A DNA stretch of 58,257 nucleotides from an uncultured Pseudomonadales bacterium (GCA_964653045.1 CAZZBW010000004.1:1-58257), one strand, 5' to 3'. Positions 24,048 to 53,300 are shown, numbered from the stretch's first letter. The notes: generated by a model from the sequence alone, not told the origin. Numbers and translations: made by a program.

Positions 24048-24614
24048 TTACCGGTTAACTAGTTTTAGCGCTTGTTTGATTAACAATTCCAGCGGTTGGG
24101 AAAAATCAAGTAATTTAAGCCGGAGGAGCGCCTCTTGTTCCTCAAATCCAAGTGCTAACAGAGCATCGTACACCTCTTTTTGCTTGGGGTCAGTAATACT
24201 GCCTAGCTCAAGCTCGCGCAGGCTGCCGAGCTTACTCTTGAGCTCAATAATGATTTTTTGGGCTAATTTTTTGCCAACTCTGGGAGTTTTGGTGAAAAAT
24301 TGGACATCAGCTTGTTGGACTGCTTGGGTAATATTTTGAGCACCGCTTTCACTAATATTAAGGGCGGTTTTGGGACCGACACCACTGACAGTTAGGAGTA
24401 GCTCGAAAAGTTTCTTATCCGCTGTTTCAAGAAATCCGAACAGCTCGACTGCTTTGTCACTAATATGGGTGTAAATAAAAATCGAAACCTGGTCTTTACC
24501 ACTAAGTTTAGCTAAAACAGAGTGAGTTACGGCTACGGCGTAACCAACTCCATTGACATCCAAAATCAGTAAGTTTTCGTCGATAATTGGTTGACCGGTG
24601 AGGCGTGCAATCAT
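24048..24614 (-). CDS. ruvA: Holliday junction DNA helicase subunit RuvA
   Basis: 188 aa. MIARLTGQPI...LDVNGVGYAVAV OB domain, two HhH motifs (VSGVGPKTALNI; PRVGKKLAQKII) and a C-terminal domain III. Confidence 0.93.
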   Translation of the reverse strand: MIARLTGQPIIDENLLILDVNGVGYAVAVTHSVLAKLSGKDQVSIFIYTHISDKAVELFGFLETADKKLFELLLTVSGVGPKTALNISESGAQNITQAVQQADVQFFTKTPRVGKKLAQKIIIELKSKLGSLRELELGSITDPKQKEVYDALLALGFEEQEALLRLKLLDFSQPLELLIKQALKLVNR

Positions 24615-24633
24615 GGGCTGATCATAACAGATT

Positions 24634-25119
24634 TTAATGAAAACAGGCAGTGATCAAAATCGCCAGGGCATCGATGGTATCGTCAACAATCTTCTCCTTT
24701 TCTAATCGGAGTTGGAGGCGGACCATTTTTTCTAAAGCAATTTTGTCGGCTTGGCCGTCGCCAGCGACGGCCAACTTTATCTCATTGGGCGTGAGCTCAA
24801 TAATCTCCATTTGGGCGTTGAGCGCGGTGATGATGATCACCCCCCTAGCCTCTGAGACTTTGAGGGCGGTGGTTTTGTTTCGGGCAAAAAAAAGTTTCTC
24901 GATAGCCAAAATTTTGGGCGAGTGTTCTTGAATAATTTGCAGGACTTGATTTTGGATCTGGAAATAACGTTGGAATAACGATGCAGCTCGATCAGTCTGG
25001 ATTAAGCCGTGGGCTGTTGTAATTACTTGATTAGCTTGCTTATACCCGACTGCCCAACCAACCCGGTCGAAACCTGGGTCGATGGCTAAGATTAGTGGTG
25101 CATTGAGTCTACTTGGCAT
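24634..25119 (-). CDS. ruvC: Crossover junction endodeoxyribonuclease RuvC
   Basis: 161 aa. ILAIDPGFDRVGWAV (catalytic Asp), AIEKLFF and DDTIDALAI motifs of the RNase H-fold resolvase. The start overlaps the stop of the upstream GT4 gene by 11 nt. Confidence 0.9.
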   Translation of the reverse strand: MPSRLNAPLILAIDPGFDRVGWAVGYKQANQVITTAHGLIQTDRAASLFQRYFQIQNQVLQIIQEHSPKILAIEKLFFARNKTTALKVSEARGVIIITALNAQMEIIELTPNEIKLAVAGDGQADKIALEKMVRLQLRLEKEKIVDDTIDALAILITACFH

Positions 25120-26266
25120 GTTTGATTGCCTGACGGACGGCTTTTAGTACTACTTGGGCAGATTGTTCCCAGCTGTACTGTTTCACTTGTTCTTGAGCTT
25201 TTTTGCGCAACTGCATCCGTTCTAGATAATTTAGTCTAGTGACACGATCGAGCTGATTAGCAATTTTCACTGGACTGAAGGGAGGGACTTGAAAGCCGGC
25301 TTGCCCGACTGCTTCGGGCAAGCCGGCGGTATTGGCGACAATTGGGATGGTGCCGTATTGGAGCGCTTCAAGAGCTGGGATGCCAAAGCCTTCATACTGA
25401 CTAATCGAGATTGAACTCAAAGCGCGAGTTAGGAGTGCCGCTTTTTGTTGATCAGTCACGAACCCTAGGCGGACAATCTCGTTTTGGTACGGAGAGTTTT
25501 CCAGAGCGGTGAGGATAGGTTTGGCCAACCAGCCAACTTTGCCAGCCAGTACCAACTTAGGCAACTGAGGCAGTTGTTTGCTTGGTAGGAATTCTTTGGC
25601 ATAGATTTCGTAAGCCTTAATCAAGTTCAAAATATTTTTGCGTGGTTGGAGAGTACCAAGGTAGAGAAAAAATGGTTGATTAAGTTTAAAGGGACGGAGG
25701 ATTTGAGTGACTTGATTCTCGGTTAACTCGATTTTACGCTGCGTCGCCGGTGGCGCCACCAGAATGTCGGTCAATGGGCGATGATAATGCTGGTGGATTT
25801 CAGACTGAGTGAAGCGGCTGATAGCAATAATTTTTTGGGCTTGACGGATCGACCGGTTAGTACCGAGCGTTAGTTTGAGCCAATCTGCGAAAGTGAAGTT
25901 GCTCGGATAATGATGAAAACCCAAGTCCATAATTGAGACAACAGTAGGGATAGGTGAAACAAACGGTAAGTAGTGACCAGGTGAGTACAACACATCAAAC
26001 TCATCTGCGTGAGCAAATAAATACTTTGGGAATGCCCAGTAAACCCAAAATGATCGAGATGGAAGCACTTGATACTGCAAATTAGCTGAAGGTTTGGGTA
26101 GCTCGGGACGTGGCGGTTGCCGCAAAAAAACAGTGGCGCTGTAGCGGCTGGAATTGTCAATCAAGGGTTTCAACGCTTTGAGTAGTTCAAAAGCATAAAC
26201 ATTGCTCCCAACTCGGTTTGTGACGTTGGCTTCATTGCCGTCAATAACGATGCGAATTTTATCCAT
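25109..26266 (-). CDS. Glycosyltransferase family 4
   Basis: YEGFGIPALEALQYGTIPIVANTAGLPEAVG motif. The start was moved to the internal MDKIRIVIDGNEA (26266), which matches GT4 N-termini and gives an 8-nt overlap with the upstream gene. The ORF-track start is 26341. Confidence 0.85.
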   Translation of the reverse strand: MDKIRIVIDGNEANVTNRVGSNVYAFELLKALKPLIDNSSRYSATVFLRQPPRPELPKPSANLQYQVLPSRSFWVYWAFPKYLFAHADEFDVLYSPGHYLPFVSPIPTVVSIMDLGFHHYPSNFTFADWLKLTLGTNRSIRQAQKIIAISRFTQSEIHQHYHRPLTDILVAPPATQRKIELTENQVTQILRPFKLNQPFFLYLGTLQPRKNILNLIKAYEIYAKEFLPSKQLPQLPKLVLAGKVGWLAKPILTALENSPYQNEIVRLGFVTDQQKAALLTRALSSISISQYEGFGIPALEALQYGTIPIVANTAGLPEAVGQAGFQVPPFSPVKIANQLDRVTRLNYLERMQLRKKAQEQVKQYSWEQSAQVVLKAVRQAIKHAK

Positions 26267-27401
26267 GGTGGTCCGTATAAAAGTGATCAATACAAGTTTG
26301 GTAAGCAAGTAAAGTTTTTTCGGCAGTTGTTTGCCAGTCAAACAACTGCAAACGAATCACCATGCGTTGAGTACGCACGGCTTGTTCAGCTTCTGATTCG
26401 TTCAAGACCAACTCAATCCCAGCTTGAATGCTTGCCACTGATTCCGGATCAATCAGTACGGCAGCGTTTCCAGCCACCTCAACCATGGCGGATGAATTGC
26501 TGGTAATAACTGGACACCAGTGGTGAAATGCTTCCAGAATTGGCAAACCGAACCCTTCGAAAAGCGATGGGTAGACAAAAGCGGTCGCTTCAGTGTAAAG
26601 AATTGAGAGAACCCGATCGCTGACTCTGCCAAGATACTTGGGTTGATGTTGGTACTCTGCCGTTGGCTTGTTATCCCAGCCAGCCTCACCCACTACGACA
26701 AGGTCGACATATGGAGCAAACATCTGCCAAGCAGCGATTAAGCGAGCCAGATTTTTACGTGGCTCTCTGGTACCGACGAACAGCAGGAATGGTTTTTGGT
26801 CTAAGCCCAACTTGGCTTTAGTTTGGAGTAAGTCTGTTTCGCTTAGTTTGGCCGTTCTTTGAGTGAGTTCAGTGGGTAGTGCTTCATGGACTAAGTGGAC
26901 ACGGTAAGGAGGAATTTTGAGTAAGTTGATCACGTCAGCGCGAGTGGCGCGACTGACGGCAATCACATGGGCGCCGGAATCAACCAGCCGGCGCCATACC
27001 CGTTGATGCGCTGCTAGCGCTTTGGGATGGGCAACTTCAGGAAAGTGGAGCATGGCTAGGTCATGAATGGTTACGATTAAAGGAATATTTTTGTCTGGTG
27101 GCAGCTGCCACTCCCACCCATGAAAAATTTCTATGCCAGGTAGTTGGTGGGCGATTTGGTTGAAGCCAAATCGCCACAATTGATTAACCACTCCCACTGG
27201 TAATGCCTGAATTGACTCAATAAACGGCTCGGGTAATGTTTGATCAACAAGGTGGGACAGCAACTGTTTTTTACCAAAGCTGGAGCCGTAATAAGCTAGC
27301 TCCACTCCAGACATCTGTCCCAGCGCTCGAATCAAGTTGGCTGTGTAGCGCGACACGCCTCTTTGATAAATTAAGCTAGTGACGTCAAAACCAATTTTCA
27401 T
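26259..27401 (-). CDS. Glycosyltransferase family 4
   Basis: 380 aa. MKIGFDVTSL N-terminus and FEGFGLPILEAFHHWCPVITSNSSAMVEVAG motif. 4-nt overlap with the upstream GT-C gene. Confidence 0.85.
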   Translation of the reverse strand: MKIGFDVTSLIYQRGVSRYTANLIRALGQMSGVELAYYGSSFGKKQLLSHLVDQTLPEPFIESIQALPVGVVNQLWRFGFNQIAHQLPGIEIFHGWEWQLPPDKNIPLIVTIHDLAMLHFPEVAHPKALAAHQRVWRRLVDSGAHVIAVSRATRADVINLLKIPPYRVHLVHEALPTELTQRTAKLSETDLLQTKAKLGLDQKPFLLFVGTREPRKNLARLIAAWQMFAPYVDLVVVGEAGWDNKPTAEYQHQPKYLGRVSDRVLSILYTEATAFVYPSLFEGFGLPILEAFHHWCPVITSNSSAMVEVAGNAAVLIDPESVASIQAGIELVLNESEAEQAVRTQRMVIRLQLFDWQTTAEKTLLAYQTCIDHFYTDHHG

Positions 27402-29020
27402 TCGTTAATTTCCGTTTTTTCAAATACTCGGATGTAACCAATCTGTGGATAGTCTAGCAAATCGGTGGGTAGATAACCATGCTGGCTGAGCTGTTTGATC
27501 ACCAGCCTATCTGGATCAGTCAGATCTGTCATGTAATCAAAGTAAATTATTTTCGCGTCAGTATAATTATGTGTTGTTCTGGCAATCAGGAATTTAGCTA
27601 GATCTTCGTTGGCTGCGTTTTGGTTCATTAAGGCAAAATCGTTAATCATACTTAAGTTTGAGAACTGTTGGTCGTACCAGACCCAACTGGCAAAGGGTGC
27701 AGAAAAGACAAAAATCTTGGGTGTTCTGTCGGAGTATTTTTGATTGATTTCTTGCCAAAGCTCACGCCAATTTTCGCGTTGCAGAGTGGGCGTACGCCAG
27801 TAAGTGATCGTGCTGGACAGATTCAGATATAAAAGCAAGCACAGTAGCAAGACTGGAGTGAGATTTTTGCAGGAGAACTGTCGCTGCTGCCAAGCTGTTT
27901 TTGCTTGAATCAAGAGTGGTGACAAAATCATGGCAATGGATAGGTAAAATCCGGGAAGTATGAATAAGACGCGCTTGGGTTGAATGACGGGCACGAAAAA
28001 GGAGATCAACCAAGCTGAAAGAAATGGAATGAATAGCCAAAAGATAGTAATTTGGAATACGAACTGTTTGTTGACAGTAAAACGTGATGGAGAGCGAACA
28101 TTTTTCCACCAGAAATAAATCGTTAAGGAAAGTAGTAAACCGAGTATGATAGAAGTTAAGAAAAAGTAGGGCGTGAGCGCTAGATCGCTCACGCCAAAGA
28201 TAAACTTGGCCGGAGTTAGAAGTAACGCTTTGAGCTGCGGAGTGGAGACGACATTCTCCCAACCAGGTAATTCAGCTCTGAGTAACTGTCCAGCTTGGAG
28301 CTGGGCTAAGAATGATGGCAACCACGGCAGAAAACCTAGAATAATCACTAGGCAGAGTGCCAGCCAGCGGCTGGCACTCTGCCGCAGCCTTGCCCACTTA
28401 ACTTGGTTTTTCCATAACGGACTGAATAGATGAAACCCGATATACCCTAGTTGTCCAAGCAGCACAAATGGGTAGAGATACGAGGTGTACAGCCCAAGAA
28501 TTGAGATTAACGCCCAACTTAAACCTATTTTCCACCAATTCGTGTTAAATTTGTTTTCAAACAATCGTTGTTTCTTTGTCAGTAGCAAAAACCAGCTGAG
28601 TACTGCCCAAAGCGTGGGCAGCGAGTAGGGGCGCAGCTCTTGGCTGAAATAAATATGGAATGAGCTGGTGGCTAGCAACAAGGCGGCTATCCCACCTGTT
28701 AGTTTCCCAATATTTTCTTTTTGATTTAGCTTGATGCCTAATTGGTAAACGAGCAAAACGGTTAGCAATCCTGGTAGTACCGCTCCCCACCAGCGCAACC
28801 ACCACTCTGTTGTATCAACGCGAATGAAAATGGCGGTCAGTAAGTGTAGCAAGGGTGGCTGGAAATCTGGTGTTAACTCCAGCTGCTCTGACCAAGGTCT
28901 GGCGCTTTCGAGCGCCTGAGCAGCTTCATCCAGCCAGAATGAGCCATTGAGCAGTGGCAGGCGTAACATCAATGCCAAAACCACAATGCTAGTCAAGATA
29001 AATACAGAGTTCTTGATCAT
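27398..29020 (-). CDS. ArnT/PMT-like membrane glycosyltransferase (GT39/GT83-type, GT-C fold)
   Basis: 540 aa, polytopic. The first-loop motif GSFWLDEAAQALES is a DE motif typical of GT39/ArnT-like enzymes. The C-terminal domain is soluble. Confidence 0.75.
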   Translation of the reverse strand: MIKNSVFILTSIVVLALMLRLPLLNGSFWLDEAAQALESARPWSEQLELTPDFQPPLLHLLTAIFIRVDTTEWWLRWWGAVLPGLLTVLLVYQLGIKLNQKENIGKLTGGIAALLLATSSFHIYFSQELRPYSLPTLWAVLSWFLLLTKKQRLFENKFNTNWWKIGLSWALISILGLYTSYLYPFVLLGQLGYIGFHLFSPLWKNQVKWARLRQSASRWLALCLVIILGFLPWLPSFLAQLQAGQLLRAELPGWENVVSTPQLKALLLTPAKFIFGVSDLALTPYFFLTSIILGLLLSLTIYFWWKNVRSPSRFTVNKQFVFQITIFWLFIPFLSAWLISFFVPVIQPKRVLFILPGFYLSIAMILSPLLIQAKTAWQQRQFSCKNLTPVLLLCLLLYLNLSSTITYWRTPTLQRENWRELWQEINQKYSDRTPKIFVFSAPFASWVWYDQQFSNLSMINDFALMNQNAANEDLAKFLIARTTHNYTDAKIIYFDYMTDLTDPDRLVIKQLSQHGYLPTDLLDYPQIGYIRVFEKTEINE

Positions 29021-29070
29021 TGGTCGTTAAGTAGTATCTCACGGGTGGTGAGTTTGGTACAATCATCGTT

Positions 29071-30042
29071 ATGCAAAAACAGGTTTTGATTGCGGGAGTC
29101 GCTGGCTTAATTGGTTCACACTTGGCTGAAGCCTTACTGGCTCAGGATTACTATGTCGTTGGGGTGGATAATTTGATCACGGGTAAGAAGAAGAATCTTA
29201 GTACTTTTATCACCAACCCCAGCTTTCGCTTGGTTGAGCTAGATATTACTCAAAGTTTGAGCACACTGGAGGAAAAGTTACCGGAATCATTTGAGCTGGT
29301 GTTTCACCTGGCTTCACCAGCCAGTCCGCCGTGGTATCAAAAATATCCTAGGGAAACATACCTGGTAAATTCAGTTGGTACTGATAATTTATTACTGTTG
29401 TTAATGGAAAATAATCGTAATGGTCGGTTTGTTTACGCCAGTACCAGTGAAGTATATGGCGATCCCCAAGAGCATCCGCAAAAAGAAAGCTACTGGGGTA
29501 ATGTTAATCCTAATGGCGCGCGCTCGTGTTATGACGAAAGCAAGCGCCTAGGTGAGACGATCTGTGGAGTGTTCGCGCGCCAACATGCCATCGATACCCG
29601 GATTGCCAGAATTTTCAATACTTACGGTCCCCGCCTGGATCCGGCCGATGGCCGGATCATTTCCAACTTCATCAACCAGGCTCTTCGCAGAGACAAGATG
29701 ACGATTTATGGCAGCGGTGAGCAAACTCGCTCCTACTGTTATGTGGCTGACTTAGTCGCTGGATTGATCAAATTGGCCACCGAGCCTGCTGCCAAGAATC
29801 AAACCGTCAACCTTGGTAATCCTGAAGAAATGACAGTTGTGGAGACGGCGCGGTTGGTCTACCGCGCCGTCCATCAATCTTCCGCCGATCCCGAAATTGA
29901 GTTTCTTCCTCTTCCCAGCGACGATCCTGTTCGTCGCCGCCCCGATATCTCTCTCGCCCACTCCCTCCTCGGTTGGCAGCCCACCACTCCTTTTTCCGAA
30001 GGTATCGCTAAAACCATTGAGTGGTTTCGCACTCAGGCTTAA
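29071..30042 (+). CDS. UDP-glucuronate decarboxylase (UDP-xylose synthase-type SDR)
   Basis: 323 aa. Rossmann motif IAGVAGLIGSHL, HLASPASP, catalytic YDESKRLGE (YxxxK), RIFNTYGPR and QTRSYCYVADLV are all typical of the UXS/ArnA-decarboxylase family. Confidence 0.88.
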   Translation: MQKQVLIAGVAGLIGSHLAEALLAQDYYVVGVDNLITGKKKNLSTFITNPSFRLVELDITQSLSTLEEKLPESFELVFHLASPASPPWYQKYPRETYLVNSVGTDNLLLLLMENNRNGRFVYASTSEVYGDPQEHPQKESYWGNVNPNGARSCYDESKRLGETICGVFARQHAIDTRIARIFNTYGPRLDPADGRIISNFINQALRRDKMTIYGSGEQTRSYCYVADLVAGLIKLATEPAAKNQTVNLGNPEEMTVVETARLVYRAVHQSSADPEIEFLPLPSDDPVRRRPDISLAHSLLGWQPTTPFSEGIAKTIEWFRTQA

Positions 30043-30055
30043 TTTTATTGACCGA

Positions 30056-31120
30056 CTACCTGCGATTAAGTGAAGTGGGATGTGCCCGATTTGAGGCTGG
30101 TTTTCTCTGGTTACCATTCCTTCCTTGCTTTCCATTTCCATTTGTAGGTTTAGGTTGGGATGCAAAGATTACTTTTGGTTGGATATTGCTTGTTCGATCA
30201 CTTTGAGGTTTGGAGCTCAGCGTTGGCCCAGTGTCCAGCATTCTTTCACCAGTTAATTTTTCAATCAGTAACGCTATGCATCCGTCAACATTTAAAAATT
30301 TGTAATCGCGCCACAGGACTCCGTTTGCACATAAGCTAATACATTTTTGGATTAGCGTAGGATGCAATATCTGTAAAAATTGTTCGGCCGCAATACTCCC
30401 AGATCGCAGATAAATTAATTGAAACAATTGAGCCACAAAAGGTACAAATACACCCGCTTCGGTTACTGCCCCAGCTCCACCGTTAAGAAAAACGAAGCAT
30501 TCACTGACAATAATTCGAACAACATTTTCTGTACTCACCTGTCGCTTATCAGCTAATTTTTTTAAATACAATTCTAGGAATTTAGGATTTGATTTAATTT
30601 GGACCTGAATAGTATTAGAACGTAGTAATTGCGCAATTTCAGAACTTACTCGAATTGTTAAATCAGTACCATTCTTATCTGCCTCAGAATTGTGAGCTTG
30701 TGGATCTAGAGCGACAATCCAAGGAAGTAAATTGGGATTAAATAAAATTTCAGCAACAGCTTGTTCAGAATCAGGACCACGTTTTTCACCACAATCGGTG
30801 GTAGGTGGAATCTGAGCGTCTTGGTGTTCTATGTACTTTTTGAGAGCGTTCAGAAGTGAGTGCGCCAGACACTTATATGCATCATCACTATCGTTTTCAA
30901 GATTTTGCCAGCACTCTTCAATTTTTTCAGGGTGCTGGACACTGACTGGACCAATACCGTTTTTGGAGGTAATAATCCGACCCCCATTTTCATTCCCTGC
31001 GCAAATTATTCCATCTTTACGACAACAATAACAATAGGTTGTCATTTCTTCTATTGTTCTTGGAGAACTTAACAATAGTTCCTGTCTAGGGCAAGCCGTT
31101 AATACAAACGATCTGCTCAT
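30056..31120 (-). CDS. Hypothetical protein with a possible PD-(D/E)xK (DUF4365-like) nuclease core, an N-terminal Cys cluster and a basic tail
   Basis: 354 aa. The segment EQAVAEILF...SEADKNGTDLTIRV...TIQVQIKSN resembles the E...DxGxDxxI...QxK arrangement of restriction-endonuclease-fold DUF4365 proteins. The N-terminus has CYCCRKDGIICAG and the C-terminus is Lys/Arg/Asn/Gly-rich. The function call is tentative. Confidence 0.35.
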   Translation of the reverse strand: MSRSFVLTACPRQELLLSSPRTIEEMTTYCYCCRKDGIICAGNENGGRIITSKNGIGPVSVQHPEKIEECWQNLENDSDDAYKCLAHSLLNALKKYIEHQDAQIPPTTDCGEKRGPDSEQAVAEILFNPNLLPWIVALDPQAHNSEADKNGTDLTIRVSSEIAQLLRSNTIQVQIKSNPKFLELYLKKLADKRQVSTENVVRIIVSECFVFLNGGAGAVTEAGVFVPFVAQLFQLIYLRSGSIAAEQFLQILHPTLIQKCISLCANGVLWRDYKFLNVDGCIALLIEKLTGERMLDTGPTLSSKPQSDRTSNIQPKVIFASQPKPTNGNGKQGRNGNQRKPASNRAHPTSLNRR

Positions 31121-31214
31121 CTTGCGTTAAACAGTGGGCAGTTGTCAATTAGTAATTTTGATATACTGAGTTTAGTCAGTAATATTTATAATTTAAATTA
31201 GCAGGAGTGTCAGT

Positions 31215-32297
31215 ATGTCAGATCAAGTAACCCCAATTATCCAAGCTGACCCAAATGAGTTAGAGGCAACTCCCGATCAACCCAGAGATTTGGGTGAGTC
31301 GACTCCCCCACTGCCTGAGCCCGATCCAGAAATCGCAGTGACCGAAGCGCGCGATCGTGTAGTTCGTAACTTCGAATTGGCGCAAGATTTACGCTCAAAA
31401 GTAGTGAGTTTGGGTCTAATTGATGGTAACGCGGCTGATGAGTATCAGCTGCCTGAAGTTGCGGAAAAATCTCAGCCCAAAGCCCGTGAGGTTGTCGAAA
31501 AGTGGGAGGAGGTCAAGCAGAAACTGGATTCTGCAGATGAGACCGATCAAGAGCGTAAGCAGCTTGAACAACAGCAAGCCGATCTAGCCATGGAGTTTGC
31601 ATACAACACTACTGGGCTTTTGTATTTTTGTTATCAAACGAAATTAAACGAAAAAATTGATGCCATCCGAGACAGTTTTGCTGATCCGGCGCAAAGTGCG
31701 GCTCAGACAATTGAGCTTGCTACACAAGCCGGAAAAGACATCGCCGCAATGGGTGGTTTGAGCACAACGCTCGAAGCTTTTTATAAAAATGTCAGTCGAG
31801 TGGTGCCAGACATGATTAAGTCCTTTCCTGAGCTCAGCTCACGAGCTTACAACCTCAATCAAGCTGTCCGGATTGAGATTGGCATGAGTCGAGAAAATGC
31901 GCCCAATCTTAATGCCGCTCAAGATGCAGATCTGGGTAACTTACTAAATATCTTGTCATCCCGAGTCAAATTGGAGCGACTTGATGATATTAAGCAAAAA
32001 ATTGAACAATTCATTGCTTCACTACAAAATCAAGTTCCAATCCAACCAGTTACGCCTACACCGGCTGCTGAAAGTTCACCAACGCTAAATGAATTCAGTG
32101 GAGCAACTGATGCGGCTGTGGCAACCATGGCACAGCCGCCCACCCTCGAAAGTATGTTAGAAAATTTAGACGTACCTGGAGGCAGCGCAAACCCTCCAGA
32201 AGAACCTTCTCAACCCCCGAGCTTAGACAAGCTATTAGCAGATGTTAATCTCGACTCTGTTCCACAATCACCCGAGCCTGCTACTCAAACAGAGTAG
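31215..32297 (+). CDS. Hypothetical acidic protein with Pro-rich termini and a helical core
   Basis: 360 aa. ATG preceded by AGGAG 8 nt upstream. An extended -10-like TGATATACT is at 31159-31167. No motif recognised. Confidence 0.65.
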   Translation: MSDQVTPIIQADPNELEATPDQPRDLGESTPPLPEPDPEIAVTEARDRVVRNFELAQDLRSKVVSLGLIDGNAADEYQLPEVAEKSQPKAREVVEKWEEVKQKLDSADETDQERKQLEQQQADLAMEFAYNTTGLLYFCYQTKLNEKIDAIRDSFADPAQSAAQTIELATQAGKDIAAMGGLSTTLEAFYKNVSRVVPDMIKSFPELSSRAYNLNQAVRIEIGMSRENAPNLNAAQDADLGNLLNILSSRVKLERLDDIKQKIEQFIASLQNQVPIQPVTPTPAAESSPTLNEFSGATDAAVATMAQPPTLESMLENLDVPGGSANPPEEPSQPPSLDKLLADVNLDSVPQSPEPATQTE

Positions 32298-32364
32298 TTT
32301 GACCCCCTTTGTGGTTGATAATTTTCATTGTTATGAGATAATAATTTCATCGAAAGATTGAATT

Positions 32365-33126
32365 ATGTCTGGATACCTTAACCGCCGCTTAACTGAAGTG
32401 TTTGGTGATTTAGCAGAAATAGCTTATGGTGAATCTCCTAAAATGATTGCGAACTATTCTGGTTTCAGGAAACTTCTCAGAAGGCATGAGATTCGTTCAG
32501 AAAGCGGAGAGCCTGATTTGGATGATCTAATCGAGCAACTTTCTAATCAACTCGGTACTTTAATTGCGGTTGTTAATCAGATATTAGAGAATAAAGCTGA
32601 ACGTCCCCATCAGCATTCAGATATACCTTTGTCTCAAGAATTATTAGATAAATATTCGCATATTTTAATAATTTACTCGAATTTTGTATCTGAAGACAAT
32701 GCACATAGTGCTCATGGTTTACTACGGCAAAGAAATCCCAAAATATTGAAGTTGGCTGAGCGTTACAATCTCTCAGAACTCAAAGACTTGTTGCTTTTAG
32801 CTGAGGAGTACTCTAATGTTCTTGTTTATTTATGGGGGATTTTTTTGGCTGGCATGAATTCAGAACAGAGCCCCCAAGTTCAAGGCACTGATGAATTCAA
32901 CTATCAGCTATTTTTCGAGCTGTTTTGTGAAGGAGTTTTTTCAGAGCTTAAGTTTAAATGGCAAGAATGTGAAGGACTAACGAACCAGGCTAAGCTGGTA
33001 TCTGAGCATTGGAAAAGTATTATCTTAGCTGAGCTTTATGCTGTTGATTCATTAGAAGGCGTTGATCGCTTGCAACGCGTGGTAGAAGAAGTGTTTCTTC
33101 AAGATAATGTTGTTCGAAAAAAATAA
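32365..33126 (+). CDS. Hypothetical protein (predicted all-helical)
   Basis: 253 aa. ATG start with a promoter-like TTGATA-N16-GATAAT upstream (about 32309-32336). No motif recognised. Confidence 0.6.
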   Translation: MSGYLNRRLTEVFGDLAEIAYGESPKMIANYSGFRKLLRRHEIRSESGEPDLDDLIEQLSNQLGTLIAVVNQILENKAERPHQHSDIPLSQELLDKYSHILIIYSNFVSEDNAHSAHGLLRQRNPKILKLAERYNLSELKDLLLLAEEYSNVLVYLWGIFLAGMNSEQSPQVQGTDEFNYQLFFELFCEGVFSELKFKWQECEGLTNQAKLVSEHWKSIILAELYAVDSLEGVDRLQRVVEEVFLQDNVVRKK

Positions 33127-33273
33127 GGTTTCAGTTTAGATCGAGATGTGGTTCTTAATGTCTATAACGCAATTTGTGATTACCAACTGCCAGTCAAAAT
33201 TGGGTTCAAACCATTGTCTAGTGACTAATATCGAAGTAACAAAAATGATAGTATTTTCTGAATAGATAGAGAT

Positions 33274-34338
33274 ATGTCAGCTAAACCTGAGACAGGTGGT
33301 AGAGCAGCTAGCGAAGGTTTGACAACACTGGAGGCTGAACTATTAGTTAACTGTGGTTCTCCCGATAAATTCGATGGTAGGCTACGTCGACATTTGGCTA
33401 AAATTTTTCGAGATAGTGGAGTTGAGCGGCGAAAGGCAAATACTTTTATCGAATTTTCTCGAAGATACTTCCACATCCAAAAGCTTCGAGTGTTTTTGTA
33501 TAGTCTTTCTCATAATGATTTAGGACAGTTGATTGCTCTGGTGAATAAGTTTCTTCCAGATCAAGAATCAATCCTAGAAAGCATCTTCTATTTACTGTTT
33601 GCTTATAATTTTATCAATGGCATGACACATGACACTGAGAAACGCTTCGCTCAGATTTTTATTGATGTAAAAAATAATAGCTTGATTGCCCAGTTTTTGC
33701 ACTGGTTTCAAACAGCTTTAGCTAATCCACCGGCCAACGCCAGCCCATATCTTGCCTGGTATAGATTCATGGCTTCTGAACTGCCTTTGTTACCAGGGCA
33801 GTTTGGCTTGTCGGCCGCAGCTCAACCCCCGCCCCATCGCTCTGAACGAAGATTGAGTATAAATCTCAAACATCTGTATGTTTCTCCCGATTCTAAAGGT
33901 TTGTGTCACAAATCTGAACGCTGGTATGAAACCTCCGCAGGATACAGTCAAGATCATCGCTTGGTCTTGACCGCCCACCATGATGAAAAACTACTGCCAG
34001 TGGCTTTTGTCAAAACCTACGAAATGCCGTCGATTTTAATTCTTGAAGATCTGGTCGCTTCGACTAGTGTGTTTTTGCCCCAAGGTCTACTGTTGACTTG
34101 CTCATGCAAAAGAGATGTTCAAGAAAGAGTGACTGACCGGATTGCCAAATTTACAGGTTCAGCTTGGGAAGTTAATACCGGTAAATCACAACAGTATCTA
34201 ATTGAGTTTGAATGGTTTCCTGCCCGAGGGATACAACTGACTGGGTTCGATGGTAGCGGCGAGTATGTCAAACCCAGCTTTAATCAGTTAAAAGCCTTGG
34301 CGGCTCGGTTTAAGGTGGCTCTGGCTACTGAAACTTAA
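33274..34338 (+). CDS. Hypothetical protein
   Basis: 354 aa. ATG start, a helical N-half and a beta-rich C-half. The 3' end overlaps the convergent gene 34325..34933 by 14 nt. No motif recognised. Confidence 0.6.
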   Translation: MSAKPETGGRAASEGLTTLEAELLVNCGSPDKFDGRLRRHLAKIFRDSGVERRKANTFIEFSRRYFHIQKLRVFLYSLSHNDLGQLIALVNKFLPDQESILESIFYLLFAYNFINGMTHDTEKRFAQIFIDVKNNSLIAQFLHWFQTALANPPANASPYLAWYRFMASELPLLPGQFGLSAAAQPPPHRSERRLSINLKHLYVSPDSKGLCHKSERWYETSAGYSQDHRLVLTAHHDEKLLPVAFVKTYEMPSILILEDLVASTSVFLPQGLLLTCSCKRDVQERVTDRIAKFTGSAWEVNTGKSQQYLIEFEWFPARGIQLTGFDGSGEYVKPSFNQLKALAARFKVALATET

Positions 34339-34933
34339 TCAAATAACATGGCTGGTGTTCTACCACACGCTTTTTAATCTGTCCCAACGCAACTAAACTG
34401 CAGAACTCTTCAATGGTGACTTGTAACTGTCTGGCTGCGGTTAAAATCGTATCTAAGCTATATTGATGGCGTGAGGCAATCCTTTTCAGCTCCGCTTGTT
34501 GGTGGTCATTTAGCTCATTCCATCTGACTTTTTCTCCAGTAATCAACGCGTAGGCGCGTATGACGAGATCGACATCATCAAGGTTTTCTGCAATTTTGAC
34601 ATGATGAGCAGCTCCTCTTGGTTGTAAGCTGAGGGAATACTTGACCTCGCCGATGAGTACGTCTAGTTGCGCTAAACCATAATCAATATCTGTAATCTCA
34701 TCAAGGCTCAATCCAGCCGGATTGAGCCGACATATTCTCCACGCGGCCAGCCACTTCTTCAATTCATCAGGATCTTTTACCACTTGTTCAAGTACTCTTT
34801 TCCCCAAACCAAACTGTAATTCATGAGTCTCGTCGCTGAACTGAAGTGGCTCATCTTGATCAACGGGTGGTTCAGTAAGTTGATTTCTTGCTTCAATACC
34901 TCTGCTTGGGTTCATAGGTTGGTATTTTATCAT
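34325..34933 (-). CDS. Hypothetical protein with a C-terminal excisionase/MerR-like helix-turn-helix
   Basis: 202 aa. The C-terminal YSLDTILTAARQLQVTIEEFCSLVALGQIKKRVV looks like an HTH_17-type DNA-binding motif. Divergent from the NYN gene across a 54-bp spacer. Confidence 0.5.
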   Translation of the reverse strand: MIKYQPMNPSRGIEARNQLTEPPVDQDEPLQFSDETHELQFGLGKRVLEQVVKDPDELKKWLAAWRICRLNPAGLSLDEITDIDYGLAQLDVLIGEVKYSLSLQPRGAAHHVKIAENLDDVDLVIRAYALITGEKVRWNELNDHQQAELKRIASRHQYSLDTILTAARQLQVTIEEFCSLVALGQIKKRVVEHQPCYLIKFQ

Positions 34934-34987
34934 TTAATCGATCAATGCTAGTCTCGCTACAGCTAAAGTAAAGAATCATCCGCTACC

Positions 34988-35521
34988 GTGGACGTTATGC
35001 TCAGGCCTGTCGTGTACGCGTTCATTGATAGCCAGAATCTCAATCTGGGCGTCAGATCCCAAGGTTGGGTGCTGGACTTCCGCAAGTTTCGGCGATACCT
35101 AACTGATAAGTATAATGTGTCTAAAGCATACTTATTTGTTGGTCACGTACCCGGAAATGAACAGCTGTACACTTATTTGGTCAAATCTGGTTATCTATTG
35201 ATCCTTAAACCAACAACAAATATCAAGTTTCAAGACAAATACAAAATTAAAGGTAATGTTGATGCAGAGTTAGTGTTGTATGCAATGATTTACTATCCAA
35301 ATTATGACAAAGCGATCATTGTTTCTGGAGATGGTGATTTTTACTGTTTAATTAAATATTTAGATGAAAATCATAAATTAGCAAAAATCTTAGTGCCAAG
35401 TGGAAAGTACTCGAGTTTATTAAAACAATTTAATCGAAAAAGTCTAATTGCGCGGGTTGATTTACTAAAATCTATGTTAATAAATAAAAAAGCTGGCATT
35501 CGCGTTCGGTCGAAACCTTAG
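34988..35521 (+). CDS. NYN domain (LabA/DUF88-like) predicted ribonuclease
   Basis: 177 aa. Acidic motifs AFIDSQNL, KGNVDAELVL and IVSGDGDFYCLIKYL match the NYN/LabA-like PIN-related fold. GTG at 34988, with an alternative ATG at 34997. Confidence 0.75.
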   Translation: MDVMLRPVVYAFIDSQNLNLGVRSQGWVLDFRKFRRYLTDKYNVSKAYLFVGHVPGNEQLYTYLVKSGYLLILKPTTNIKFQDKYKIKGNVDAELVLYAMIYYPNYDKAIIVSGDGDFYCLIKYLDENHKLAKILVPSGKYSSLLKQFNRKSLIARVDLLKSMLINKKAGIRVRSKP

Positions 35522-35661
35522 GCTAGTCCAGCTATGGTAATGATTGTATAGTACCACGTACCTGCATACAGTCAAGCTGTAACCAATACCTTGTTACCAC
35601 TAGCTAGATTTTGACTTTTATTCGAACTTGAACGGTAAATTAGAGTAAAATATTGGTACTG

Positions 35662-36605
35662 ATGAAGTTCAAGATCCCGCTCTGGCTCAAGCTAGCTGTC
35701 TCCGTTGGCCTGTTGATTTTTCTATTTAAAAACACCGATCTGAACGAAGCTTGGCGGAACGTGCGCAACGTTCCGCCAACATTGATTCTCCTTGCCCTGT
35801 TTGCCAACCTAGCAGCCATACTGATCAACTCCTACCGCTGGGCGATCATTATCCCCGTCTCGCTAACTTGGCAAAACGTCAAGCCACTAATAATTGCTTC
35901 TTACCTCGGCACTTTTTACTCGGTTTTTTTACCCTCCACACTCGGAGGTGATCTGATCAAGTGGGGGCTGGCGGGTCGACCCGCCAGCCGAGCTCGCACC
36001 GCCACTTCATCTTCATCGATCGCCTGGTTGGCCTAATTTCTTCGACATTACTTTCCCTGATGGCTTTAGCATGTTTGTATTTCTTCAATCAATCATCAGT
36101 TCCTACTCTCATCTTTCAGCTAGTCAGTGGTATCTCACTAGCAATTACGATTGCCATTGTGGCTTGGTCATTATTAGTCAAGATGGCACCCAACTTCCTC
36201 CATCACCTACCCATTCCGGTCAGCCTGAAGGATCCAAGCTTGATGAAAATCTCGTCTAAACAACTTTTTTTCAGCTTGCTGATTACATTTTTTAATCAGC
36301 TGGTGATCGTCAGCTGTTCATACTTGCTCGTAAGGGCTTTCAATATTGATTTAAAGTGGTTTCAGCTGCTGCTGGTGACTCAGCTCAGCTGGCTGGTGGC
36401 GGCCATTCCGATTTCATTTGGTGGATTTGGCACTACTGAGATCAGTTTCGTTTTTCTTGCCAATCTCTTTGGGGCATCGGGGCAGCAAGTTTTATCAATT
36501 GTTTCATTGGGGATAGTCATGCACTTACTGATTATCATTTTTTCTGGCATTATCGGCTGGGCGTTGTTCTTGCCCAGCCGGCCTCAGACAATCAACGCCA
36601 AATAA
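35662..36605 (+). pseudogene. UPF0104 / lysyl-PG-synthase-TM-type flippase-like membrane protein, interrupted by a frameshift near 35965-36015
   Basis: The ORFs 35653..36036 and 35961..36605 are the two halves of one polytopic protein. The first carries the family motif LPSTLGGDLIKW. The second resumes with FIFIDRLVGLISS in the +2 frame relative to the first ORF. The spacing from the GGD Asp codon to the DR Asp codon is 68 nt, which is not a multiple of 3. The shift coincides with a GC-rich perfect 20-nt palindrome. Confidence 0.7.
35968..35987. repeat. Perfect 20-nt palindrome CTGGCGGGTCGACCCGCCAG at the frameshift site
   Basis: Read directly: the sequence equals its own reverse complement. 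It is embedded in an unusually GC-rich stretch of about 48 nt (35961-36008) in an otherwise AT-leaning region. Confidence 0.95.
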
Positions 36606-37597: not shown

Positions 37598-39161
37598 TTT
37601 CTCTGCCAATATGAAGCTACAGTTGCAGCGTACCGTACTCGAGTATGCTCCAAGGTTATTGACCCAGCTTGATCGCGACCCATTATCGCCTACTTATGGC
37701 TGTTTTGATCGAAGCTATTGGCACTATAAAATCAGAGACTTTTCATCCATGGTTCTACAGCAAAATATTCTTTCACTCGCATATTTATATCATTATCCAT
37801 TTAAAAACAGTTCATATTACCGTTCTCCGCTCATTCTTGAATTTGTTCATGCGAGTATTAATTACTGGGCTAAAACCCAACACCGAAATGGCGGCTTTGA
37901 TGAATATTGGCCGAATGAGTGTGGATATCCACCACTCGTCTTTTCTACGCACGCTGTGTTGCGGGCTATCATTTTATTAAAGCTGAAAAGTGCACCATAT
38001 AAAAAATTCCTATTAAAAGCTATCTCCCAAATTTCTCAATATCAAGAAAAAAACGCGCTGAATCAAGAAGCCGCAGGTGTTATGTGTCTTTATTATTATT
38101 ATCAGATATTTGGCGATCAAAACATTAAGAAAACTTTTGAGATTCGATTAGAATCCCTACTTAATCGCCAATCAAATGAAGGGTGGTTTCCTGAGTATGG
38201 TGGCGCTGATATAGGTTATTCTAGTGTCTTTTTAAATTACTTATCCGAGCTAGTATCTACTGAATATCACGCGCTAGTTATAGAACCACTCAGTAAGCAA
38301 ATTGAATTTTTACATAACTTTGTCCATCCAGATGGAACTGTCGGAGGTGAGTATGGTAGTCGTAACACCGAGTACTTTTTACTGTCTGGACTTGTGCGGA
38401 TGCAAAAATTTTCTAAACAAGCATCTTGGATGATAAAAAATATTAAATGGAATCTCAATAATTTAGATGATCGCTACTTATATCACTACATTTTTCATTC
38501 CTATATTGAAGGATCATATAATTTATCTGCAATTGCACCAAATTCGTTTGTTATAAAATCACAAGTACATTATTTTCCAGAGTCAGGTTTATACGTAAAT
38601 AAGTCAAGTAGTATATATTTTGTATCGAACTTAAAAAAGGGTGGTGTTTTTAAATTATATCTTAACCAAGTTCTTCATCAAAAATGTGGTGGTTATAGGA
38701 TTAAATCTGGTAATAGTTTTTTTGTAACAAATTGGTTGACAGATGCTGGCTCAGTAAAAATTAATAACTCTATGATTAAATGCTCTACATTTCTTCATAA
38801 AAACAACTTTCAGGTTATTACACCAATTAAACATTGCTTTTTGAGAATGATTGCAGTTCTGCCATATAAACAAACTATTATTTCTTCAATAAAAAAATTG
38901 TTAATACATCAAGACAAACCAACCCCTACTCTTTTCCATCGATCTTTCTCGTTTTCGAATACAAAACTGGTTATAACCGATAGTTTTACACCCCCCCAAT
39001 CTATTAATGCCGATTGGTCTATAGAAGGATCTTTGCGCTTTGTTCCATCAAGTAAATTTTATGATTCATCAGTAAATACAATTAAAGATTCTCATGCGCT
39101 CATTAATTTTCAACCAGGGAAAATGCGCACTTGGGTTATAAAGTATGACAAAAACAAGTAA
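37584..39161 (+). CDS. Hypothetical protein, possibly an (alpha/alpha)-toroid repeat enzyme
   Basis: 525 aa. Recurrent motifs QHRNGGFDEYW, QSNEGWFPEYGGADIGY and HPDGTVGGEYGSRN are spaced about 60-100 aa apart, reminiscent of the QW-type repeats of toroidal enzymes. The C-terminal ~200 aa look beta-rich. 14-nt overlap with the upstream GT2. Confidence 0.35.
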   Translation: MVSNNFSANMKLQLQRTVLEYAPRLLTQLDRDPLSPTYGCFDRSYWHYKIRDFSSMVLQQNILSLAYLYHYPFKNSSYYRSPLILEFVHASINYWAKTQHRNGGFDEYWPNECGYPPLVFSTHAVLRAIILLKLKSAPYKKFLLKAISQISQYQEKNALNQEAAGVMCLYYYYQIFGDQNIKKTFEIRLESLLNRQSNEGWFPEYGGADIGYSSVFLNYLSELVSTEYHALVIEPLSKQIEFLHNFVHPDGTVGGEYGSRNTEYFLLSGLVRMQKFSKQASWMIKNIKWNLNNLDDRYLYHYIFHSYIEGSYNLSAIAPNSFVIKSQVHYFPESGLYVNKSSSIYFVSNLKKGGVFKLYLNQVLHQKCGGYRIKSGNSFFVTNWLTDAGSVKINNSMIKCSTFLHKNNFQVITPIKHCFLRMIAVLPYKQTIISSIKKLLIHQDKPTPTLFHRSFSFSNTKLVITDSFTPPQSINADWSIEGSLRFVPSSKFYDSSVNTIKDSHALINFQPGKMRTWVIKYDKNK

Positions 39162-40497
39162 TTATTATTCAAAACTTCAATCTGAAGTAATTAATCAGGG
39201 TTTATGTACTCATTGTGGTCTATGTGCCGGGATGTCTGCCAACACTCTTAAAATGACTGATACTCCCAGTGGTCCCCTTCCATCCAGGTGCTCAAATAAA
39301 GCACCGATTGTTAATCATGAAGTTTTTCAATCATGCCCTGGAAAAGGCATAAATTATCCCAAACTCAATAAACTTCTTTTTAATAAACTTCCTGACTCAT
39401 GGCTGGTTGGCAACTTTCTCCATAGTTATATTGGTCACTCCACAAGTAAAGAAATTAGACGAATTGGTGCCTCTGGGGGCTTAATTACCCACGTTTGCTT
39501 GTATTTATTAGATAAGGGTTTAGTTGATGGAATTATTATGTCTAGAATGCGATCAGACATCCCGTGGCAACCAGAAACCATTATTGCAACGACTAGCGAG
39601 CAGATAAAGAGTTGCGCGCAGAGTATATATCAACCAATACCTGTTCTAGAAATAATTAATCAGCTTAAAAAATTTACTGGAAAAGTTGCTATGGTTGGCT
39701 TACCTGACCAGGTGGGTGCAGTTCGGTCCATGCAAACACAAGGAAATTTACTAGCTAATAAAATTTCCTTCATTATTGGGCCATATGTTGGCACTAATAT
39801 GTATTTTGAGTCGATTAAAAGCTTCTTGCGTAGTAACGGAGTATCGGACTTCAAATCTATAAAAAAATTGAACTACCGTGATGGCGAATGGCCGGGATAT
39901 CTATCAATTACCTTAAAAAATGGTCGAAGATTTACAGCAGAGAAATTCTATTATAATTATTTAATCCCTTTTTTTATTACAAGATCGTCACTTACCTCAA
40001 TTGATTTAACTAATGAATTAACTGATATATCTGTGGGAGATGCCTGGAACCCAACTTATGAGAAGAAAGGTCAAGGTTTCTCTGTAGTTATCGCTAGATC
40101 TAAACGCGGATTAGAAATTCTTAAAGAGATGAAAATCAATAAATTGATTTCTTTAAATGAAATTGATCTTCAACAAACTATTAAGATGCACGCTCATATG
40201 ATTGAATTCAAAAAAAGAGGTGCTTTCATTAGACTGAAGTTGAGAAAGTTCTTTAGTTTAAATTCACCAGAATATGGTTATAAAATTACAAATATCCCGT
40301 TGGTAAGAATTGTGATAGAACTTATTATCAGTGGTATCTTTGCTGTATGCAAATTAGGAATAGTAAAAAAGATTATGGAATTAATTCCAATTAAAATTCT
40401 GGGTAAAGTATTCAACTTTATTCGCATCAATTGGAAAAAGGTTACTAAATCATCGAAACGTAAAGGACTAGTTAGTTTTACTTATGAAGTGGAATAG
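39145..40497 (+). CDS. Coenzyme F420 hydrogenase/dehydrogenase beta-subunit family (FrhB/FdhB-like) Fe-S flavoprotein
   Basis: 450 aa. N-terminal cluster motif CTHCGLCAGMS, plus GASGGLITHVCLYLLDKGLVDGII and VGLPDQVGAVR..., are typical of the FrhB_FdhB N and C domains. The C-terminus has a hydrophobic helix (VRIVIELIISGIFAVCKLGIV). Confidence 0.7.
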   Translation: MTKTSNYYSKLQSEVINQGLCTHCGLCAGMSANTLKMTDTPSGPLPSRCSNKAPIVNHEVFQSCPGKGINYPKLNKLLFNKLPDSWLVGNFLHSYIGHSTSKEIRRIGASGGLITHVCLYLLDKGLVDGIIMSRMRSDIPWQPETIIATTSEQIKSCAQSIYQPIPVLEIINQLKKFTGKVAMVGLPDQVGAVRSMQTQGNLLANKISFIIGPYVGTNMYFESIKSFLRSNGVSDFKSIKKLNYRDGEWPGYLSITLKNGRRFTAEKFYYNYLIPFFITRSSLTSIDLTNELTDISVGDAWNPTYEKKGQGFSVVIARSKRGLEILKEMKINKLISLNEIDLQQTIKMHAHMIEFKKRGAFIRLKLRKFFSLNSPEYGYKITNIPLVRIVIELIISGIFAVCKLGIVKKIMELIPIKILGKVFNFIRINWKKVTKSSKRKGLVSFTYEVE

Positions 40498-40867
40498 TAT
40501 AATTACTAGTCAATTAATTAAGTTTGGATGGCTTAGGGTTGCATCATTCTTTCTTTCCCTTTTTTTTATGCATTTATTTCATGTCACACTATCAATAGAA
40601 GAACGAACAGCTTATGCAATGGTTTTGCTGATATTACTCATTATTAGTTATTTTATATCTGCAATTTGGGTATTTCATACAACTCTAACTAAGCGAACAT
40701 TTTTTCAATACTTTGGCTATATTGGTTTAATTTCAATAATATCAGTACCTCTTTTTGATTTTTTAAGTTCTAAGTTACATGTAAATTACTTATTCAATAC
40801 AATAATTTCATTAGGATTGGTGTTCGTATTAAAATTTATAGTATTAAAAAATAATGTTTTTAAATAA
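40484..40867 (+). CDS. GtrA-like small 4-TM membrane protein (putative polyprenyl-P-sugar flippase component)
   Basis: 127 aa with four hydrophobic helices. The paired motifs YFISAIWVFH and KFIVLKNNVFK match the GtrA family pattern (...WVF at the ends of TM2 and TM4). Confidence 0.7.
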   Translation: MKWNSIITSQLIKFGWLRVASFFLSLFFMHLFHVTLSIEERTAYAMVLLILLIISYFISAIWVFHTTLTKRTFFQYFGYIGLISIISVPLFDFLSSKLHVNYLFNTIISLGLVFVLKFIVLKNNVFK

Positions 40868-40940
40868 TTAATATTACAATTTAGTTTTTGAAAGAAATTC
40901 AATATTAATAATTGGATTGGAATATTTTCAAACGACCCCT

Positions 40941-41399
40941 ATGAAAAACGCCTTATCAAATAAAAAAGTTTTTGTTAGTGGCTGCTATGATTTAATTCAT
41001 AGTGGTCACATACATTTTTTCGAACAAGCATCTCGATATGGAGATCTTTATGTCTCAATAGCATCAAATAAAACCATTTTGGATCTAAAAAAAAGAAAAC
41101 CGATTACGACTGAAAATGAAAGACTATTTCACATTCGATCAATTAAATACGTCTTTAAAGCTTTTGTTTCCAGAGGCACTGGAATGATGAACTTTCTAGA
41201 AGATTTTATAAAAATTGAACCAGATTTTTTTGTAGTCAACGAAGATGGCGACAAGTCAGAAAAAAAACAACTTTGTCATAAGTATGGAGTTAATTATATT
41301 GTTTTAAAGCGAGAACCAAAAAAGGGACTTCCAGCCCGTTCCTCATCTGAGTTATATACTTTAATTGCATCGACTGAATCTGATGCCTTTGAGCAGTGA
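40941..41399 (+). CDS. Cytidylyltransferase-family nucleotidyltransferase (TagD / RfaE-domain-II-like)
   Basis: KKVFVSGCYDLIHSGHIHFFEQA matches the (T/H)xGH signature of the CTP_transf_like fold, and the size is similar to TagD. The ORF-track start 40917 is TTG, so the ATG at 40941 was used. Confidence 0.75.
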   Translation: MKNALSNKKVFVSGCYDLIHSGHIHFFEQASRYGDLYVSIASNKTILDLKKRKPITTENERLFHIRSIKYVFKAFVSRGTGMMNFLEDFIKIEPDFFVVNEDGDKSEKKQLCHKYGVNYIVLKREPKKGLPARSSSELYTLIASTESDAFEQ

Positions 41400-41540
41400 T
41401 CAAATATGACAACCTCATTTTTATCAAGCGGTCTTTTTGTACTTTTATTTAATTTGATATCTTCAGGATCTCTTTCAGTTTTGGTTAACCTAGGAAGAGG
41501 AGTTGGCTACAGTTCTCTTCATGTAATTGTCTAATACATT

Positions 41541-53064: not shown

Positions 53065-53075
53065 ACGAGAAAGCT

Positions 53076-53300
53076 CTAATTCGGTGCTTTAAATGCTATT
53101 CCCTCATATCTCCAGACAAATTCAGGGTAAGTGGCAATAATCAGGTTTTTTTCGTCTTCGAATGCGGTGTAGAAATGAGCCTGATTTTGATCACTCCAGA
53201 AACGATAAATGGGGCTTGATGCGACTGAGGTACCAGAAGGGAAGACATAGTAGGCTATTCCTTCATATCTCCAAACGTACTCTGGATAAGTGGCAATAAT
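53076..53300 (-). repeat. 225-bp segment identical to 54620-54844 (3' end of paralogous repeat-module coding sequence)
   Basis: Base-by-base comparison of the two stretches shows identity from the stop codon through ...GTGGCAATAAT. Divergence begins at 53301 / 54845. Confidence 0.95.

Follow-up and report, generated by a model that had tools for sequence, protein, structure and literature searches.

A probable exchange site for accessory genes, some of nuclease type, within the envelope-glycan locus of a Patescibacteria-type bacterium

To our knowledge, Patescibacteria of the Candidate Phyla Radiation (CPR) have tiny genomes with few recognised defence systems, and little is understood of how they deal with phages and mobile elements. 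Stand-alone NYN proteins, too, are as far as we know largely without an assigned function. DUF4365 has been shown experimentally to be the effector (collateral) nuclease of the SPARDA short-Argonaute systems (PMC10810196, PMC12205087). Here we examine a stretch of 58,257 nucleotides (nt) labelled as an uncultured Pseudomonadales bacterium (GCA_964653045.1 CAZZBW010000004.1:1-58257; the whole stretch is called the window below), and within it the interval 30056-35521, where six open reading frames (ORFs), P1 to P6, lie between a UXS-like gene on the left and a flippase-like gene. A first-pass annotation of the sequence had read these genes as an island in a glycan locus and as one defence, abortive-infection or toxin-antitoxin (TA)-like module. 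Part of that reading stands, as the interval does hold non-glycan, strain-variable cargo in a glycan locus, in which an RNase-type domain is confirmed and a DNase-type domain probable, but the single unit does not. We think it probable that the interval is a recombination hotspot for accessory genes between the UXS-like and flippase-like genes, and that its contents are independently inherited units and not one system.

An ORF listing returned all six genes where they had first been placed, on strands -,+,+,+,-,+, along with the 14-nt convergent overlap of P4, which ends at 34338, and P5, which ends at 34325 on the minus strand. An identical block with the same gene calls is found in L001, an independent Logan assembly (L-numbers denote relative loci). 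The features of the interval are as follows.

P1, 30056-31120, minus strand: 354 amino acids (aa), probable DUF4365/Mrr-like PD-(D/E)xK core
P2, 31215-32297, plus strand: 360 aa, strongly acidic, divergent from P1
P2 3′ end and P2-P3 spacer, 32274-32342, no strand: conserved junction, the L007 equivalent of which is duplicated as a 51-nt direct repeat
P3, 32365-33126, plus strand: 253 aa, acidic, family unassigned
P4, 33274-34338, plus strand: 354 aa, strain-specific, between P3 and P5
P5, 34325-34933, minus strand: 202 aa, family unassigned, with a 54-nt spacer to the divergent NYN gene
P5/NYN divergent intergenic region, 34934-34987, no strand: holds the left boundary (34952) of a 98.6%-identical segment shared with L003
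P6, 34988-35521, plus strand: stand-alone NYN (LabA-like, PIN-related) predicted RNase

The comparison of two relatives that are nearly one strain, L003 and L007, bears on how these genes are inherited. Their UXS, RuvC, RuvA and both GT4 proteins are 98-100% identical in amino acid sequence (dS 0.04-0.23), whereas the interval is a mosaic. Blastn finds no alignable DNA at the P1 position, P2 is 92% identical in nucleotides, P3 is 85% identical and frameshifted in L003, and the NYN gene is 75% identical in nucleotides and 59% in amino acids. Where L007 has P5, L003 has MNT/HepT. The 401-aa L007 gene that occupies the P1 position (P1b) is a remote homologue of P1 (hhalign probability 83%, E=8.5e-6, 19% identity across 139 columns), and the match spans the E / D / ExK core. 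A 222-aa gene is found in L007 only and is bracketed by a 51-nt direct repeat, the copies of which (L007 2264-2314 and 3018-3068) are 84% identical and hold the last codons of the P2 orthologue, so that the 3′ end of P2 is included; the repeat looks like the footprint of the event that inserted the 222-aa gene.

The same mosaicism is seen between the window and L003. The left flank (window 24063-31259) is 84% identical in nucleotides, including the more divergent P1 gene (64% aa), and P2 and P3 are 42% and ~27% identical in amino acids. Window 34952-35522, which covers the NYN gene and 36 nt upstream of it, matches L003 1-571 at 98.6% of nucleotides, and since the L003 contig ends inside the NYN gene, the shared segment is at least these 571 nt long. 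An NYN gene at 98.6% beside a left flank at 84%, with the allele of the sister strain L007 at only 59% aa, points to recent allele transfer between lineages. Elsewhere the same slot holds a HAD-like gene, Fic and Gp49(HigB-like)/HTH_3 in L004, HTH_3 with Phd/ParE in L005 and L006 (with an additional Gp49 gene in L006), and HTH_3 with Phd/ParE between P1 and the flippase-like gene in L095. Gene-sized cassettes and deeply divergent alleles swapped between near-identical strains, with breakpoints in conserved junctions, are the pattern expected of homologous recombination through the flanks. In window coordinates the cassette junctions are placed at 31259, 32047-32342 and 34952.

Relatives of the locus were gathered by exact-protein look-ups and by scanning genomes with the PMT-like neighbour as anchor (80 loci), and the ORFs of all loci were searched with jackhmmer. 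A 'Candidatus Woesebacteria' metagenome-assembled genome (MAG) encodes a PMT-like protein 83% identical to the PMT-like neighbour, and the 80 related loci are nearly all in records labelled as Patescibacteria-group MAGs or as MAGs that are unclassified or probably mislabelled. The gene order RuvBAC, GT4, GT4, PMT-like, UXS is conserved. Judged by these sequence relationships, the host is a Patescibacteria (CPR) bacterium of the Microgenomatia/Woesebacteria type.

Within this set the six genes are distributed very differently. P1 was found by jackhmmer in the window, L003, L004, L005, L013 (where it is cut by the contig end), L016, L033, L055, L087, L089, L090, L092, L093 and L095; distinct loci other than the window number 12. 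It lies directly beyond the UXS-like gene, towards which it is transcribed convergently, in the window, L003, L004, L016, L033 and L055, and L095 has it at the same backbone position with one GT2 gene intervening. P2 is present in the window, L003, L007, L004, L005, L027, L089 and L093; it is adjacent to and divergent from P1 in the window, L003, L089 and L093 and no more than 5 kb away in L004 and L005. A pair of the two genes, most often divergent, thereby recurs in several Microgenomatia lineages. P3 is confined to the window, L003 (split) and L007, P5 to the window and L007, and P4 to the window, while NYN genes occur in the window, L003, L007, L004, L044 and L036, the L004 copy lying past the flippase-like gene. 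Among 61 loci with the UXS/PMT-like pair, the gene beyond UXS belongs to a ~1000-aa family in 16, to a ~430-aa family in 7 and to P1 in 6, the rest being assorted small families or singletons. In a neighbour-joining tree built from the PMT-like protein, loci with P1 do not group together but are scattered. An empty site, with UXS directly adjoining the flippase-like gene, was found in none of the four loci that have a flippase-like homologue. Such gene-by-gene distributions, together with the mosaic described above, are not the behaviour of a co-inherited six-gene system.

All six ORFs are real genes. A codon log-odds model trained on 17 confident window genes scores each of them, including P4, best in its annotated frame and in the range of control genes, and the codon usage of P4 is coding-like over its full length. 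With dS saturated in most comparisons the rate estimates are rough, but dN/dS against orthologues is 0.20-0.56 for P1, P2, P3 (0.33), P5 and P6, compared with 0.01-0.16 for RuvA/C, UXS, the GT4 genes and the PMT-like gene. Coding-like frames and these ratios together mark real genes under relaxed or fast evolution rather than noise, with purifying selection on five of the six.

P1 had been called a PD-(D/E)xK/DUF4365-like nuclease in the first-pass annotation. This call finds no direct profile match, as neither P1 nor its closest homologues hit any Pfam model at E<=1, and a PDB sequence-profile search gave nothing credible; transitive homology, motif and predicted topology do support it. A word-indexed homology search with P1 found two relatives only, and scans of genome contigs and metagenome contigs with a three-sequence P1 alignment found none. 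Exhaustive HMMER searching with the three-sequence profile recovered 35 cluster representatives at E<=0.001 among 1.84 billion proteins. When ten shorter relatives were scanned against Pfam, six of the ten matched DUF4365, in one case above the gathering score, and another of the six matched Mrr_cat as well. The first, P0030 (P1-profile match E=2.9e-5), scores 26.8 bits against PF14280 (cutoff 24.3) over the same region, and the five further members match DUF4365 at E=4e-4 to 0.035, P0034 being the one that also matches Mrr_cat. The Pfam matches of P0030 and P0034 cover the region that aligns with P1 residues ~140-208.

In an alignment of 36 sequences D148, D153, Q174, V175 and K176 reach at least 90% conservation and E119 is also widely shared, the nearly invariant family motif being RG..SE (E119), S..D..GID (D148, D153) and QVKS (Q174, K176). 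An AlphaFold2 model built from this alignment has a pLDDT of 78.8, with the core above 90 (an earlier model from 3 sequences had 54), and its core follows the order alpha-beta-beta-beta-alpha-beta (helix 110-126, strands 135-140, 154-158 and 170-176, helix 180-193, strand 209-213). P1 is laid out as a zinc-ribbon-like Cys cluster (~28-70), the nuclease-like core (~110-215), a conserved helical C-terminal domain (~215-296) and a tail (297-354) that is basic and disordered, with a net charge of +10, the basic tail being found in this lineage. Longer family members have an N-terminal C-x-C-C...C...C module, modelled as short beta-hairpins, and the conserved helical C-terminal domain. All P1-family contexts examined are a CPR-type glycan locus or a short contig. 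We consider P1 a probable PD-(D/E)xK/DUF4365-like protein on the basis of transitive homology and motifs, not of the fold search, and its family appears to be a new, small and divergent subfamily distantly related to DUF4365/Mrr-type nucleases. Two tandem P1-family paralogues (291 and 295 aa) are found at L093 1618-3403, divergent from a P2 homologue (604-1512).

P2 has a pI of 4.3 and a net charge of -31, with Pro-rich, apparently disordered ends and a helical middle, and an N-terminal D-x-G-E-A motif is conserved in an alignment of 7 homologues. It has no match in Pfam, PADLOC or PHROG and no credible one in PDB; matches to designer pentatricopeptide-repeat proteins were set aside as repeat artefacts, with no single stretch passing. 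In the PDB profile searches with P1 to P5 taken together, a match to the anti-sigma factor 8hep_B (E=1.4e-3) was too weak to be accepted, and nothing else was credible. In L005 (15157-16686) and L027 (2975-4510) the P2 homologue is immediately followed by a ~510-aa protein of unassigned family that has no counterpart in the window and carries an internal TAT-signal-like match at residues 306-326.

P2, P3 and P4 had all been described as complete orphans, which holds for P4, as no homologue is detectable, but not for P2 and P3, which have homologues in related genomes. Those of P3 are 26-28% identical and limited to the closest relatives, with no family match in Pfam, PADLOC, NCBIfam or PHROG and none in PDB. 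The P3 orthologue of L003 (1297-2177) consists of two overlapping ORFs of 129 and 173 aa where L007 has an intact 292 aa, likely a frameshift or pseudogenisation in one strain. P4 matched only itself in a word-indexed search of 5.8 billion proteins, its 90%-identity cluster has one member, it is absent from all other distinct loci fetched, and it has no PDB or viral relatives. P3 and P5 are adjacent in L007, and P4 sits between them in the window; P4 and the 222-aa insert of L007 have no similarity. P5 has a single homologue, in L007 (31% identity), at the same position and orientation relative to NYN. The excisionase-type helix-turn-helix proposed for P5 was not upheld: there is no Pfam or NCBIfam match at E<=1, the last 40 residues show no conservation in the sole homologue, and a PDB profile search found no match.

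The assignment of P6 to the NYN family was confirmed, with PF01936 matching residues 11-137 at 57.3 bits (cutoff 24.2; E=3.4e-15). Residues D14, N17, D92, D115 and D117 are invariant in four homologues, one of them 23% identical, and these Asp are catalytic or metal-binding positions in NYN/PIN domains. By its sequence, P6 is an ordinary member of the family.

We infer that the content of the interval is conflict-related, that is anti-phage, anti-mobile-element or addiction, and four units can be proposed. The first, on which the slot would be anchored, is the recurrent divergent pair P1/P2, in which P1 would act as a Mg2+-dependent DNA endonuclease effector and P2 may control it as neutraliser, sensor or scaffold, by analogy with nuclease/immunity and toxin/antitoxin pairs. 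That P2 may regulate or neutralise P1 is suggested by their recurrent adjacency and by the charge complementarity of acidic P2 and the basic P1 tail. P3 and P5, fast-evolving and found in the closest relatives only, would form the second unit, the strain-specific P4, inserted between them, the third, and the stand-alone NYN RNase the fourth. Diversity would be kept by frequency-dependent selection, as in defence and addiction loci. A bolder proposal, tentative and on balance rather unlikely in full, is that P1/P2 is an undescribed two-gene conflict module, seen only in Patescibacteria-type contexts in the sequences examined, in which an acidic, possibly DNA-mimicking P2 gates a zinc-ribbon/DUF4365-type DNA nuclease P1; co-occurring near-identical strains would keep alleles down to ~19% identity by balancing selection, and the adjoining slot would be a cassette-exchange site for P3, P4, P5, NYN and TA modules.

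The flanking genes are, as first annotated, glycan and envelope genes: an NDP-sugar dehydratase of the short-chain dehydrogenase/reductase (SDR) family (UXS-like), a flippase-like LPG_synthase_TM gene and a polyprenyl-phosphate GT2, to which a 540-aa PMT-like membrane protein, two GT4, an FrhB-like protein and GtrA can be added. The gene at 29071-30042 had been named a UDP-glucuronate decarboxylase; it is a UXS-like SDR NDP-sugar dehydratase/epimerase, but the equivalog-level name is not confirmed, as all NCBIfam matches are below cutoff. P1 is convergent with it across a gap of 13 nt, and a hairpin that is terminator-like on both strands lies at the 3′ end of the UXS-like gene before the P1 stop (30017-30036), which may be a shared bidirectional terminator of the two genes. 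Terminator-like hairpins are mildly enriched in the interval (10 against 4.3 +/- 2.2 expected), while the promoter-like elements ascribed to it do not exceed chance (13 sites against 11.3 +/- 3.0). Signal peptide-like or transmembrane-grade hydrophobic segments were found in none of the six proteins, the maximum 19-residue Kyte-Doolittle mean being 1.55.

On the right, the flippase-like gene (LPG_synthase_TM / TIGR00374, 35653-36605) is in two overlapping frames, 35653-36036 and 35961-36605, with a frameshift near 36009, and the intact 321-aa homologue of L004 matches both pieces, in frames +2 and +1. L001 has the very same sequence, which makes the gene a pseudogene or the frameshift a true one, and not a one-off assembly error. 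Further along, GC is 0.27-0.41 from ~38000 to 55000 (0.31-0.39 in most 1-kb windows), compared with 0.38-0.48 in the left-hand 38 kb, and this region contains a methyltransferase-GT4 fusion, a second UXS-like gene and proteins of 847 and 647 aa with no Pfam match. Possibly this region is a block of glycan cassettes that was acquired separately.

Several observations weigh against reading the interval as a hotspot of conflict genes with P1/P2 as one of its units. All relatives are metagenome contigs, and chimeric assembly of co-occurring strains could exaggerate the mosaicism; the saturated dS noted above also counts here. P2 is not near P1 in L016, L033, L055 and L095, L027 has P2 without a visible P1, and the two genes are divergently transcribed, not co-transcribed. 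P1 is found beside UXS in loci where the PMT-like proteins are ~40-50% identical, which could equally reflect a conserved lineage function. A search of PADLOC-DB v2 matched no system model beyond weak single-protein matches, namely NYN (E=1.1e-5, covering profile positions 147-288 of 310) and HEC-09 (2.1e-5) for P6 and PDC-M02A (0.013) for P1, and over 36 P1-family members the best was PDC-M02A at 3.7e-4. There is also no link to phages or plasmids, with no IMG/VR relatives of P1, P4 and P5 and no meaningful PHROG matches for the six. Foldseek with the P1 model found nothing at E<0.001 in PDB or BFVD and did not recover the solved SPARDA DUF4365 structures, the best PDB match being the PD-(D/E)xK restriction enzyme Ecl18kI (weak; E=0.21, probability 0.12), so the nuclease fold of P1 is argued from sequence motifs and secondary-structure order. 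Two known categories were also rejected: P1 as a SPARDA component, as no PIWI, MID or APAZ family match was found in the six proteins or their neighbours, and the six genes of the interval as type II/VII TA, as there is no TA family match, P4/P5 are convergent and P1/P2 and P5/P6 are divergent. If the hotspot reading is granted, whether its function is truly defence or addiction is roughly an even call; a defence role of the interval is plausible.

Of the other explanations, the one that survives best is that P1/P2, and perhaps P3/P5, are lineage-specific cellular genes with a CPR housekeeping or host-interaction role tied to the glycan/RuvABC neighbourhood (for example DNA processing, regulation or surface biology), hypervariable only through fast protein evolution in episymbionts. 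The persistence of P1 beside UXS at such PMT-like divergence fits this well, as do the pairing of P1 with P2 in several lineages, dN/dS below 1 in all measurable genes and the lack of mobile-element signatures. We nevertheless think it unlikely, as P1 beside UXS in 6 of 61 loci, scattered on the PMT-like tree, is too patchy for an essential function, and alleles of ~19% (P1) and 59% (NYN) identity in near-identical strains are unexpected for housekeeping genes. The TA and Fic modules in the slot of relatives also count against it, and the lack of signal peptide-like or transmembrane-grade segments argues against surface proteins.

It is very improbable that the six genes came in together on one island and work as a novel multi-gene system of defence or abortive infection. 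Two nuclease-type proteins do share one non-glycan interval, five of the six have no annotated family, and the slot of relatives carries conflict genes; but the six are never together outside this strain, their distributions are unequal, near-identical sister strains exchange them singly, P4 has no detectable homologue, and the L004 NYN gene lies beyond the flippase-like gene. The mixed strands and convergent overlap argue against one operon. Nothing points to recent import as one island either: integrase, tRNA and flanking repeats are not visible in the interval, as had been reported, nor is there an Rfam match, a repeat search gave short, chance-level matches only, and nothing resembling an integron attC structure was found. 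Measured per 1 kb, GC in the interval is 0.40-0.44, inside the range of the left-hand 38 kb, and P1 is positionally stable beside UXS in several divergent lineages. An integrative island or prophage was rejected on this absence of tRNA, integrase and above-chance repeats, on host-like GC and codon usage, and on the lack of viral relatives of P1, P4 and P5. That the interval is left over from an integrated mobile element or prophage in decay, with its genes drifting, would fit the orphan-rich, mixed-strand content, the frameshifted flippase-like gene and the split L003 P3 orthologue, but it is hardly credible given the absence of integrase, tRNA and terminal repeats, the empty viral searches, the host-like GC and codon usage, the purifying selection on five of six genes and the recurrence of P1 and P2 at the same chromosomal site in divergent lineages.

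On the hotspot reading, streamlined CPR genomes too would keep a strain-variable slot that exchanges nuclease-type genes and TA cassettes between near-identical strains. The DUF4365-like nuclease and its acidic partner can be cloned, and they are a candidate immunity or addiction module specific to the CPR. Annotation and defence-system catalogues should not carry the six-gene 'system' as a unit; what remains of interest is that near-identical CPR strains carry such deeply divergent alleles, and that the pair of nuclease and acidic partner recurs.

Compared with known DUF4365/Mrr_cat nucleases, such as the SPARDA DREN/DUF4365 protein, P1 is alike in its helix-E, D...D (G-I-D) and Q-V-K-S motifs and in core order, but it stays below all Pfam thresholds, has no significant Foldseek neighbour, and adds an N-terminal Cys cluster, a C-terminal domain (LNGGAG...PF.AQL...RDY) and the basic tail. 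Unlike SPARDA, it has no Argonaute/APAZ partner, its recurrent neighbour being the acidic P2. P6 resembles known stand-alone NYN/LabA-like proteins (PF01936) in its full-length domain with conserved Asp, while it matches the PADLOC NYN profile weakly and in part only. The interval shares with defence islands and TA hotspots a fixed slot between conserved genes, the content of which varies between near-identical strains, and in relatives this slot holds MNT/HepT, HigB-like/HTH, Phd/ParE and Fic beside nuclease-type genes. It differs in that the genes resident in the slot of this strain belong to no recognised TA or defence family save the generic NYN, and in that exchange seemingly proceeds via conserved intergenic and gene-end junctions. 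The known kind to which it belongs is the variable defence/TA-type hotspot, and what is new here is its place inside a CPR glycan locus.

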